Source: Shigella phage KRT47. Taken from it: a stretch of DNA of 64,000 nt. Shown one piece after another: positions 1 to 4,301 of this stretch. How positions within the stretch are numbered: position 1 is the first letter of the stretch; the number at the start of each line of letters is the position of its first letter. Under the pieces are notes generated by a model. That model was given only the letters and a program-made list of their open reading frames with translations, ran no database searches and was not told the DNA's origin. The position numbers and the translations under genes are program-made. The stretch is from sequence record MN781580; one strand, 5' to 3'.

Positions 1-1389
1 ATTGAAAATGCCGAAGCTGCTATGACAGCTGTTGACTTTCAAGCAAATCTCGAAAAATATGGAATTCCAGGAGTAGTAGCTCTTTATCCAGGCGAGTTGG
101 GCGATAAAATCGAAATTGAAATCGTATCTAAAGCTGACTACGCAAAAGGTGCTTCTGCATTACTCCCAATTTATCCAGGTGGCGGAACACGCGCATCTAC
201 TGCCAAAGCAGTGTTTGGATATGGACCACAAACTGATTCACAATACGCTATTATAGTTCGTCGCAATGATGCTATTGTTCAAAGCGTTGTTCTTTCAACG
301 AAGCGTGGTGAAAAAGATATTTACGATAGTAACATCTATATCGATGACTTTTTCGCAAAAGGTGGTTCAGAATATATTTTTGCAACTGCACAAAACTGGC
401 CAGAAGGCTTCTCTGGAATTTTAACTCTTTCTGGTGGATTATCATCAAATGCTGAAATAACAGCAGGAGATTTGATGGAAGCTTGGGACTTCTTTGCTGA
501 CCGTGAATCTGTAGATGTTCAACTGTTTATTGCGGGTTCTTGTGCCGGTGAATCTTTAGAAACAGCATCTACTGTCCAAAAACACGTCGTTTCAATTGGG
601 GATGCTCGTCAAGATTGCTTAGTATTGTGCTCACCACCACGTGAAACTGTAGTTGGAATTCCTGTAACTCGTGCAGTAGATAATTTAGTTAACTGGAGAA
701 CTGCAGCAGGTTCATACACTGATAATAACTTTAATATCAGTTCAACCTATGCAGCAATTGATGGTAACTATAAGTATCAGTATGACAAATATAATGATGT
801 GAATCGTTGGGTTCCATTAGCAGCTGATATTGCTGGTTTATGCGCAAGAACTGATAACGTATCTCAGACTTGGATGTCTCCAGCTGGTTATAATCGTGGC
901 CAAATTTTGAACGTTATTAAACTTGCTATTGAAACTCGCCAGGCTCAGCGCGACCGTTTATACCAAGAAGCTATCAACCCGGTAACTGGTACAGGTGGTG
1001 ATGGTTACGTATTGTATGGTGATAAAACAGCTACTTCTGTTCCTTCTCCATTTGATCGTATTAACGTTCGTCGTCTGTTTAATATGTTGAAAACGAACAT
1101 CGGACGTAGTTCAAAATATCGTTTGTTCGAATTAAACAACGCGTTTACTCGTTCATCATTCCGCACAGAAACTGCCCAGTACTTACAGGGAATTAAAGCT
1201 CTCGGTGGAATTTATGAATATCGTGTAGTTTGCGATACAACAAATAACACTCCGTCAGTAATTGATAGAAATGAGTTTGTTGCAACATTCTACATCCAAC
1301 CGGCGCGCAGTATAAATTATATTACTTTGAATTTCGTCGCAACTGCTACTGGTGCAGATTTCGATGAGTTAACTGGTCTTGCAGGTTAA
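1..1389 (+). CDS. 18: tail sheath protein gp18, C-terminal ~460 aa; 5' end lies upstream of window
   Basis: Frame open from base 1 (track ORF 22..1389); recognised as T4 gp18-like by recall; sits upstream of gene 19 as in T4. Confidence 0.9.
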   Translation: MENAEAAMTAVDFQANLEKYGIPGVVALYPGELGDKIEIEIVSKADYAKGASALLPIYPGGGTRASTAKAVFGYGPQTDSQYAIIVRRNDAIVQSVVLSTKRGEKDIYDSNIYIDDFFAKGGSEYIFATAQNWPEGFSGILTLSGGLSSNAEITAGDLMEAWDFFADRESVDVQLFIAGSCAGESLETASTVQKHVVSIGDARQDCLVLCSPPRETVVGIPVTRAVDNLVNWRTAAGSYTDNNFNISSTYAAIDGNYKYQYDKYNDVNRWVPLAADIAGLCARTDNVSQTWMSPAGYNRGQILNVIKLAIETRQAQRDRLYQEAINPVTGTGGDGYVLYGDKTATSVPSPFDRINVRRLFNMLKTNIGRSSKYRLFELNNAFTRSSFRTETAQYLQGIKALGGIYEYRVVCDTTNNTPSVIDRNEFVATFYIQPARSINYITLNFVATATGADFDELTGLAG

Positions 1390-1396
1390 TTGATAT

Positions 1397-1410
1397 GGGG
1401 CTTCGGCCCC
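1397..1410 (+). terminator. GC hairpin GGGGCTTCGGCCCC (UUCG loop) directly after gene 18 stop
   Basis: Perfect 5-bp GC stem with UUCG tetraloop 8 nt after TAA at 1387-1389; weak U tract, so may be a stability hairpin rather than a terminator. Confidence 0.45.
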
Positions 1411-1427
1411 TATTCTCGAGGAATCAA

Positions 1428-2045
1428 GTGATTATTTCTAAATTTATTAAAGTGAAAATTGTACCATCAAATTTTAAACATTATCAATCAAAGGGTTATA
1501 AATTAACACCTCTTGGAGCGGTTAAACATGGATTTAGGTATTATGAAATTGATGTTAAAGTTGAAGACATTAAAGGTAGTACCGCGTATGTAAAATGCCG
1601 TTGCGATAAATGTGGAATTGAATATAACCAACGCATTGGAAGAAACACTGATATTTGTCGTGATTGCCGTCATAAAGATAAAATGCGCAATAATTCATAT
1701 GGTTCCGCGAATAAAGGAAAAACAGTAGAATGTATGCATGGCGTAAATCATCCAAGATGGAACCCAAATAAATCTGAAATGCGTGAATATATTTCATTGG
1801 TATATAAAGAAACTCGTAAGCATAAGAAAATTTGGTCAAAATGGCCAAATGCTGATAAAATAGGAGTGTGTGGTACAAAAGGCGCTTACCAACTTGATCA
1901 TAAGGTATCTATCAAATACGGTTTTGATAATTTAATTCCTGCTAAAATAATTGGCGGTATTAATAATTTAGAAATAATCACTTGGGAATCTAACCGAGAA
2001 AAATCAAAAAGAAATAGTGTAGATCTTTGGGATTTACTAGAATGA
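1428..2045 (+). CDS. putative HNH-family homing endonuclease (free-standing)
   Basis: Track ORF 1395..2045; paired Cys knuckles CRCDKCG / CRDCRH and LDHK...N...NLEIITWESN motif; likely true start is in-frame GTG 1428 with GAGGA SD at 1418-1422, since ATG 1395 sits inside the hairpin. Confidence 0.5.
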   Translation: MIISKFIKVKIVPSNFKHYQSKGYKLTPLGAVKHGFRYYEIDVKVEDIKGSTAYVKCRCDKCGIEYNQRIGRNTDICRDCRHKDKMRNNSYGSANKGKTVECMHGVNHPRWNPNKSEMREYISLVYKETRKHKKIWSKWPNADKIGVCGTKGAYQLDHKVSIKYGFDNLIPAKIIGGINNLEIITWESNREKSKRNSVDLWDLLE

Positions 2046-2052
2046 TTCTAAA

Positions 2053-2070
2053 GGCCTGTTTCGGCAGGCC
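2053..2070 (+). terminator. GC hairpin with UUCG-type loop after the HNH ORF
   Basis: GGCCTG/CAGGCC stem around TTCG loop, 8 nt after stop at 2045. Confidence 0.4.
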
Positions 2071-2071
2071 A

Positions 2072-2079
2072 TATAAATA
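2072..2079 (+). promoter_or_regulatory. T4-type late promoter TATAAATA
   Basis: Exact TATAAATA upstream of gene 19. Confidence 0.5.
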
Positions 2080-2130
2080 CACTATATCCTTAATTCTTTA
2101 ATTCTATATGCCCTAGGTTAAACATAGGGA

Positions 2131-2138
2131 TATAAATA
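2131..2138 (+). promoter_or_regulatory. T4-type late promoter TATAAATA for gene 19
   Basis: Exact TATAAATA 15 nt upstream of gene 19 ATG; AGAGG SD at 2142-2146. Confidence 0.65.
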
Positions 2139-2152
2139 CTACAGAGGCTAAT

Positions 2153-2644
2153 ATGTTTGTAGATGATGTAACACGAGCGTTTGAATCTGGTGATTTTGCT
2201 CGACCTAACTTATTCCAAGTAGAAATTTCTTATCTTGGACAAAATTTTACGTTCCAATGTAAAGCCACTGCTTTACCAGCTGGTATTGTAGAAAAAATTC
2301 CAGTCGGATTTATGAACCGTAAAATTAACGTAGCAGGCGATCGTACATTCGATGACTGGACTGTTACAGTAATGAACGATGAAGCTCATGATGCTCGCCA
2401 GAAGTTCGTTGATTGGCAAAGCATTGCTGCGGGACAAGGAAACGAAATTACTGGTGGAAAACCTGCAGAGTATAAAAAGAGCGCTATCGTTCGTCAATAT
2501 GCTCGTGACGCTAAAACTGTAACAAAAGAAGTCGAAATTAAAGGCCTGTGGCCTACTAACGTGGGTGAACTTCAATTAGATTGGGATTCAAACAATGAAA
2601 TCCAAACCTTTGAAGTAACTCTTGCTCTCGATTATTGGGAATAA
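2153..2644 (+). CDS. 19: tail tube protein gp19
   Basis: 163 aa, same length as T4 gp19; recognised sequence; synteny 18-19-20. Confidence 0.93.
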   Translation: MFVDDVTRAFESGDFARPNLFQVEISYLGQNFTFQCKATALPAGIVEKIPVGFMNRKINVAGDRTFDDWTVTVMNDEAHDARQKFVDWQSIAAGQGNEITGGKPAEYKKSAIVRQYARDAKTVTKEVEIKGLWPTNVGELQLDWDSNNEIQTFEVTLALDYWE

Positions 2645-2651
2645 AATGAAT

Positions 2652-2665
2652 GGGGAGAAATCCCC
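2652..2665 (+). terminator. hairpin GGGGA-GAAA-TCCCC (GNRA loop) after gene 19
   Basis: 5-bp stem with GAAA tetraloop 8 nt after stop. Confidence 0.4.
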
Positions 2666-2676
2666 ATCCTGCTTAA

Positions 2677-4301
<1,625 letters not shown>

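Follow-up and report, generated by a model that had tools for sequence, protein, structure and literature searches.

ORF 19.1 of Shigella phage KRT47, an optional gene at the junction of tail genes 18 and 19 and a probable free-standing HNH homing endonuclease gene

The window is a stretch of 64,000 nucleotides (nt) of Shigella phage KRT47 (sequence record MN781580), a T4-like phage (Tequatrovirus); RB3 and its close relatives match positions 1000-2600 at 99.4% identity. A cassette of 655 nt (1390-2044) is located directly behind the tail sheath gene 18, and carries one open reading frame (ORF), ORF 19.1 (1428-2045), of 205 amino acids (aa) with a GTG start. All features described are on the plus strand. 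The cassette is an optional insert with exact boundaries, occurs as two alleles, is under purifying selection, is placed at gene 18 and is linked to a haplotype of the gene 18 flank. Its gene is probably a free-standing, homing-type HNH endonuclease gene of the 18/19 junction, spreading by repair after the cutting or nicking of insert-less relatives. Nuclease activity, a target site and homing of ORF 19.1 are what we infer from the sequence; an HNH-type nuclease is the best reading of its C-terminal domain.

Boundaries and expression signals of the cassette

Gene 18 is present in the window by its 3' part (22-1389), a listed ORF with 99-100% identity to gp18 of RB3, T4 and T6; it adjoins the cassette on the upstream side and is the candidate target gene. 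On the downstream side, gene 19 (tail tube) occupies positions 2153-2644. The gap from the end of gene 18 at 1389 to the start of gene 19 at 2153 is 763 nt, in agreement with the about 760 base pairs (bp) of an earlier reading of the letters alone (the original prediction); the gap of T4 is 116 nt. A single ORF is present in the gap, from ATG 1395 or GTG 1428 to TGA 2045. No paralogue of ORF 19.1 is found elsewhere in the window.

The junction was aligned between the window, RB3, T6, T4 and SA20RB. The empty-site order is the gene 18 stop codon TAA, TACGGTGC, then ATTCTAAAGGCC. The order in the window is TAA, the 655 nt of 1390-2044, then the same ATTCTAAAGGCC. The boundaries that this alignment, proposed with the original prediction, defines are sharp: 655 nt stand in place of the 8 nt TACGGTGC of the empty-site phages T4 and SA20RB. 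From 2045 on, the window is identical base for base to these phages without the ORF, and the right boundary coincides exactly with the ORF stop codon. Sporadic presence at a defined site with sharp boundaries, a mark of homing genes, is thus observed. The empty junction TAA-TACGGTGC-ATTCTAAAGG is a candidate target site.

The contents of the cassette are a C(UUCG)G hairpin (1397-1410), a Shine-Dalgarno sequence GAGGA (1419-1423, read from the sequence, 4 nt 5' of GTG 1428) and the ORF, and nothing more. The hairpin (GGGGC-UUCG-GCCCC; -10.8 kcal/mol, z -2.5) is directly 3' of the gene 18 stop, where empty phages have their native hairpin; its conservation extends to T6 and to a divergent carrier lineage (L045). 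Behind the cassette is the native 18-19 intergenic region (2045-2152), identical in empty-site T4 and SA20RB, with a hairpin at 2053-2070 (-12.8 kcal/mol, z -3.7) and the late-promoter motif TATAAATA at 2072-2079 and 2131-2138. The SA20RB record annotates a terminator and a late promoter in its native 18-19 region. Because they are unchanged in ORF-less phages, the hairpin 2053-2070 and both late promoters are the native upstream region of gene 19. The HNH-like motifs, the Cys knuckles CRCDKCG and CRDCRH, the two hairpins and the late-promoter motifs are all present at the positions given by the original prediction. Its picture of a cassette bracketed by hairpins holds for the upstream hairpin, which is cassette-borne, and fails for the downstream one, which is present in empty T4; the late promoters, likewise present there, are not part of the cassette. 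The motif TATAAATA occurs 17 times in the window versus 8.9 expected, a count reached in 0 of 100 shuffles.

The conserved start of ORF 19.1, judged by the alignment of homologues, is GTG 1428, as had been suggested. ATG 1395-1397 overlaps the first stem base (1397) of the cassette hairpin. GTG 1428 opens the family-conserved N-terminus M-I-I-S/T-K; every homologue begins M-I-I, the GenBank records of T6 and Sf22 carry notes on the GTG start, and a Klebsiella phage locus (L007) has an equivalent arrangement of AAGGA and GTG. The ORF is devoid of its own late promoter in this genus, so its mRNA likely results from read-through from gene 18. The sequence TATAAATT at 1311-1318 within gene 18 was considered as a private late promoter of the ORF and dropped: the carrier L045 has GATAAATT at this place, and TATAAATT is also found in some empty phages. 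Occlusion of the Shine-Dalgarno sequence by the hairpin was dropped as well; shuffled sequence folds equally well (z -0.81), and the proposal that translation is kept low is conjecture. An intron-encoded homing endonuclease was rejected for the window: the ORF is intergenic, and Rfam finds nothing in positions 1-3000.

Distribution, alleles and linkage to gene 18

Phage records matching the region number 671; occupied and empty junctions together make about 501 Tequatrovirus records. Prevalence is given from GenBank phage records, since a scan of IMG/VR with gp19 yielded 15 loci, too few for statistics. Type A (RB3 type, the allele of the window, full length) is present in 47 records and type B (T6-type allele) in 70; the empty T4 junction query is covered by 384. 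The junction is therefore occupied in 117 of about 501 records, and approximately 23% of close relatives carry the cassette. Uniform conservation in all close relatives, named beforehand as an outcome that would speak against a homing cassette, is not seen.

Types A and B have in common the 5' leader (hairpin, Shine-Dalgarno sequence, first codons) and the last third of the ORF, with nt identity of about 95%; the central part of the ORF shows no relationship in its DNA. Protein identity is 30% for the N-terminal domains and 82% for the C-terminal domains, on flanks more than 95% identical. ORF19.1 of T6 belongs to the same locus and family as the ORF of the window; the 5' leader and the C-terminal domain are common to both, and the N-terminal halves differ (30% identity). 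Another lineage (P0012, P0024) has the same two N-terminal classes, again with ends that are otherwise identical. The A/B difference of the N-terminal domains looks like a module exchange. All examined copies (14 of 14) are intact, and the ratio of nonsynonymous to synonymous diversity (pN/pS) is 0.11 in type A and 0.07 in type B; the ORF is hence maintained and not decaying.

Some shortened or disrupted copies are present in single records. A T6-type ORF in a read-assembly contig (L043, 1124-1680) is frameshifted in an A-run, and Salmonella phage S16 (M1HDJ8) has a 106-aa ORF of the C-terminal domain only; each may be a decayed copy or a sequencing error. A 59-aa fragment in phage WL-3 was dropped as a decayed copy. 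Assembly error is more likely there, because gene 19 is also not callable in that record.

For the flank comparison, 3.3 kb on either side was taken from 8 type A, 4 type B and 7 empty phages. Over the final 300 bp of gene 18, type A phages diverge from one another by 0.98% and type B phages by 1.11%; the value is 3.8% among the empty phages, 4.6% for A versus empty and 5.2% for B versus empty. Beyond 300 bp all classes are mixed equally, with 3-6% divergence. No signal like that of the left flank is found in the right flank in the same comparison. Positions 1-290 of L030 lie outside the window, in gene 17, about 3.0-3.3 kb before the gene 18 stop; divergence among Tequatroviruses is 12-14% there versus 2-6% elsewhere in the flanks, which could be a mosaic patch of the terminase gene or an alignment end effect.

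The source of the left-flank signal is a patch of synonymous variation in gene 18 (1303-1341, 48-85 nt upstream of the cassette; 13 codons, A-R-S-I-N-Y-I-T-L-N-F-V-A). Type A and T4 differ by 11 of 41 nt in the patch, all of them synonymous changes, versus 52 of 1892 nt in the rest of gene 18. Among 16 full-length sequences, 40 nt here hold 17 variable sites, more than any other 40-nt stretch of gene 18. Four haplotypes of the patch are found, one of A carriers, one of B carriers and two of empty sites, with one amino-acid difference (T/Q) among them. The divergent carrier lineage (ORF 76% identical) shares with type A the hairpin of the cassette and, in the patch, a core of 20 nt. Variation in the patch tracks the insert state. 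The flank pattern fits co-conversion with the cassette or selection on a recognition site, and the patch is a candidate recognition or immunity site, a second candidate target beside the empty junction, or a co-conversion footprint.

In other phages, a family member adjoins gene 18 in 12 of 12 contexts inspected, distant T4-like genera included. It is located directly after gene 18 in a Klebsiella phage, Acinetobacter phage Acj61, Serratia phage CHI14, Aeromonas phage AS-zj, a Dhakavirus, Citrobacter phage Ci1 (annotated gp19.1), Sinorhizobium phage phiM12 (where gene 19 does not come next) and a metagenomic T4-like contig, in which a NUMOD3 N-terminus is present instead of the zinc ribbon. 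In two further carrier lineages it also adjoins gene 18. In the Serratia-like group, L020 carries the gene and its close relatives L019 and L021 are without it. In Campylobacter phage CP21 (L027, 1430-3065) a gp18-like gene is interrupted by 1,636 bp encoding a 388-aa family member; the break is clean, between the equivalents of residues 311 and 313 of the 455-residue gp18 fragment of the window. No intron is detected by Rfam in the CP21 locus. The two gp18 parts of CP21 are in different frames, and several other annotated homing endonuclease genes follow.

The identity of the ORF to the window protein is 38-61% across genera whose gp18 is uniformly 73-74% identical (pairwise identities); because of this spread the ORF is not simply co-diverging with its host. 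A history incongruent with that of the host, as expected of a homing gene, is seen in the swapped N-terminal domain on near-identical flanks and in the ORF/gp18 mismatch, the latter judged by pairwise identities.

The main alternative, possible and rather doubtful, is that ORF 19.1 is an old resident accessory gene of the 18-19 locus ('gp19.1') in the T4 superfamily, non-mobile and repeatedly lost by deletion, with a role such as a late nuclease damaging competing phage or host DNA or processing DNA ends. The constant placement behind gene 18 in very distant phages, from Tevenvirinae to Sinorhizobium phage phiM12, fits such a gene equally well as a homing gene. So do the strong purifying selection with every examined copy intact, the synonymous diversity of the ORF, which is similar to that of its surroundings, and the Serratia and Acinetobacter phages, where the gene is integrated in the operon, having a late promoter of its own and a stop codon that abuts or overlaps the gene 19 start. 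On the other hand, all 384 empty Tequatrovirus junctions match one query, which is hard to obtain by many independent deletions. Two alleles with a swapped N-terminal module on near-identical flanks, ORF divergence out of step with gp18 and gp19, the CP21 member inside an interruption of gene 18 and the members with NUMOD3 also speak against a resident gene.

Domains of the ORF 19.1 protein and assessment of homing

The translation holds CRCDKCG, CRDCRH and LDHK...NNLEIITWESN. It matches PHROG 5104 (1e-90), a group without assigned function, and a family profile search retrieves 6,230 clusters (50% identity) at E<=1e-3. An N-terminal treble-clef zinc ribbon followed by a degenerate C-terminal HNH domain is the best-supported reading of the protein, from conservation, a structure model, sub-threshold Pfam matches across the family and Foldseek matches to viral proteins taken together; no single test is decisive.

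Conservation was read from 30 close homologues and 45 diverse C-terminal domains. In the zinc-ribbon core (residues 57-82, positions 1596-1673), C59, C62 and C77 are invariant and C80 is present in at least 90% of sequences. The predicted HNH-like beta-beta-alpha core comprises residues 148-192 (positions 1869-2003; C148, G149, Q155, D157, H158, N180, L181, W186, N189, K192). In this domain D157-H158, N180 and N189 are invariant in both sets, giving the D-H...N...N signature of HNH/HNN nucleases; these residues correspond to the catalytic His of the D-H pair, the structural Asn and the metal ligand in the helix that characterize the HNH superfamily. Most of the zinc cysteines usual in HNH domains are replaced (W186 and S188 where CxxC is expected). 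The stretch Y-Q-L-D-H-K-V-S ... N-L-E-I-I-T-W-E-S-N-R-E-K is one that we take to resemble Cas9- and McrA-type HNH motifs. The AlphaFold2 model (29 sequences) has a mean predicted local distance difference test score (pLDDT) of 84.9. In the model D-H ends strand 154-158, N180 precedes strand 181-185 and N189 is in helix 186-191, a predicted beta-beta-alpha topology.

Among 147 family representatives scanned with Pfam, HNH_4 matches 13 and HNH 6, all sub-threshold and aligned on the D-H motif; the best HNH_4 match (3.5e-4, 20.9 bits versus a cut-off of 22) is in a distant relative, not in the window protein. DUF4379, a treble-clef zinc finger, matches 21 of the 147 sub-threshold (best 7e-6), and NUMOD3 matches 2. 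JGI labels name four members McrA; six members have a precomputed match to NUMOD3, a homing-endonuclease DNA-binding motif. Foldseek against the viral models of BFVD retrieves proteins annotated HNH or homing endonuclease at 3e-6 to 2e-2. Direct Pfam and NCBIfam searches of the protein, like sequence and profile searches of PDB, give nothing beyond weak zinc-ribbon matches; one PDB profile run is dominated by spurious leucine-rich-repeat matches to an 'NLQ' stretch.

Five longer relatives (P0169, P0124, P0120, P0142 and P0174; 316-451 aa) have the same C-terminal domain together with Pfam DUF7487 (up to 2.6e-50). This domain of unknown function may be another nuclease-associated module, because it is joined to the same C-terminal domain.

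The following course is proposed. The gene would encode a two-domain site-specific DNA endonuclease, with the zinc ribbon as the presumed DNA-binding module and a C-terminal module that would be a degenerate HNH (beta-beta-alpha-metal) domain of the D-H...N...N type with most structural zinc cysteines lost. Transcription of the gene is probably late, by read-through from gene 18, with GTG 1428 as the translation start. During mixed infection, the enzyme would nick or cut the 3' end of gene 18 or the 18-19 junction of a cassette-less relative, and recombinational repair would then copy the cassette together with a short stretch of donor gene 18 (<300 bp).

Several results weigh against a homing endonuclease. 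Pfam and NCBIfam give no HNH match for the window protein, even at E<=10; PDB sequence searches and PDB profile searches with full-length and C-terminal alignments find no HNH; Foldseek against PDB gives nothing below E=3. An HNH profile search was the test named with the original prediction, with the lack of a significant hit as its refutation, and no significant match is obtained. The A haplotype of the patch is present in 68 records versus 47 with the A insert, and SA20RB is empty with the A haplotype. Tight linkage alone would give the same flank pattern; as recombination is heavy in T-even phages anyway, short linked tracts do not point to homing specifically. Up to the junction, the flanks of carriers and non-carriers are otherwise identical, and only a site spanning the junction or situated in the patch would explain self-immunity. 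Synonymous diversity in the ORF (pS about 6%) argues against a very recent sweep. A literature search found no report of cleavage or homing for ORF 19.1.

The lack of a curated HNH profile match, the empty Foldseek search of PDB and the replaced zinc cysteines would also suit a non-catalytic zinc-ribbon nucleic-acid-binding protein, for instance a regulator of late or tail genes, in which the HNH-like motif is a structural relic. This is improbable: D-H, N and N are the sole invariant positions across the 45 diverse domains, which is the pattern of an active site, not of a relic. Enzymes of the HNN type without the second zinc site are well known (I-HmuI, the HNH domain of Cas9).

The favoured reading thus remains a homing-type HNH endonuclease gene. 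Taken as a whole, the original prediction is sound in the optional cassette and the GTG start and reasonable in the nuclease class; it fails in the bracketing and in the direct HNH profile test.

Comparison with known systems and significance

ORF 19.1 is comparable with the free-standing homing endonucleases of T-even phages (Seg enzymes of the GIY-YIG type, SegF and SegG; Mob enzymes of the HNH type, MobE; Hef). Like these, it is an optional single-gene insert between essential genes, patchy among near-identical phages, with insert-linked short flank tracts and a modular architecture of nuclease and DNA-binding domains. Expression from late transcripts with nearby hairpins is typical of such free-standing homing genes. 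Differs from Mob and Seg enzymes in the lack of a match to HNH_3 or any GIY-YIG profile. Differs from the Mob / I-HmuI type (N-terminal HNH_3, then NUMOD or helix-turn-helix) in the order of domains, the zinc ribbon being first and the nuclease domain C-terminal; a few distant relatives carry N-terminal NUMOD3. Both cleavage and marker exclusion have been documented in the Seg and Mob groups, whereas ORF 19.1 is known here from sequence.

With the HNH_4/Cas9-type and McrA-type HNH domains (PF13395, PF01844; COG1403) the protein has in common the motif Y-x-(L/V)-D-H-(I/K)-x-(S/P) ... N-L ... N-(R)-x-K. The sub-threshold Pfam matches align on that stretch, the JGI label McrA is carried by four members, and a Cas9 HNH-domain chain (7enh, E 0.2) is among the very few PDB profile matches. 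Unlike classical HNH domains, the family has mostly lost the CxxC...CxxC zinc site and does not reach curated thresholds.

The zinc-ribbon HNH nicking endonucleases of phages (Gme HNH, 4h9d; GVE2 HNH, 5h0o) are about 90-100 aa in length, compared with 205 aa for ORF 19.1. They act with terminase in packaging. ORF 19.1 is situated two genes from the terminase gene (gp17) and two from the portal gene (gp20), and a terminase-associated packaging cofactor (compare HK97 gp74 and the Geobacter and GVE2 HNH proteins) has to be considered. Such a role is very improbable. Unlike Gme and GVE2 HNH, ORF 19.1 is tied to gene 18, not to terminase, and most relatives do without it: about 77% of the close ones (384 of about 501), T4 included, lack it and package normally, and the CP21 copy is inside gene 18. 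T4-type phages package by the headful mechanism and are not known to use an HNH cofactor.

Database entries for the ORF go back to T6 ORF19.1; nearly everywhere it is called hypothetical, and there are two automated 'homing endonuclease' labels. In Table 5 of Petrov et al. 2010 (PMC2993671), RB3 has no entry under 'other HNH', so ORF 19.1 was apparently not counted there as a homing endonuclease gene. Wrong transferred labels are found at the locus: the ORF is 'putative head morphogenesis protein' in L004 (730-1335; T6, NC_054907) and other records, and in several records gp19 is 'tail fiber protein' and gp18 'long tail fiber proximal subunit'.

Further features of the surroundings are as follows. 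The sequence CTTCGG has 33 copies in the whole window versus 14.2 expected (33 reached in 0 of 100 shuffles); C(UUCG)G hairpins abound in T4 intercistronic regions, and the excess fits. A second stable hairpin (2650-2672, GGGGAGAAAUCCCC core; -11.3 kcal/mol, z -2.6) is directly 3' of gene 19. A TATAAATA late promoter (2692-2699) is located between this hairpin and gene 20, the same hairpin-plus-promoter layout as after gene 18. Residue 127 of gp19 is valine (GTC, 2531-2533) in the window and isoleucine in T4; RB3, T6 and the other close relatives checked are each one residue off the gp19 of the window.

ORF 19.1 is most likely an uncharacterised homing-endonuclease gene of the familiar T-even kind. 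More tentatively, the '19.1' proteins may form a very large homing endonuclease family (about 6,200 clusters) tied to gene 18 across the T4 superfamily, free-standing after gene 18 in most lineages and within an intervening sequence of gene 18 in Campylobacter phages, with a constant degenerate HNH module and exchanged N-terminal modules (zinc-ribbon A, zinc-ribbon B, NUMOD3); in that case the patch 1303-1341 might have been left by an arms race of target and endonuclease. For annotation, the start is to be placed at GTG 1428, and the downstream hairpin and promoters are to be assigned to gene 19, not to the cassette. The fixed gene 18 address and the exchangeable N-terminal modules would suit the study of how homing endonuclease specificity changes at one genomic address, and the family could yield new sequence-specific nickases or cutters.

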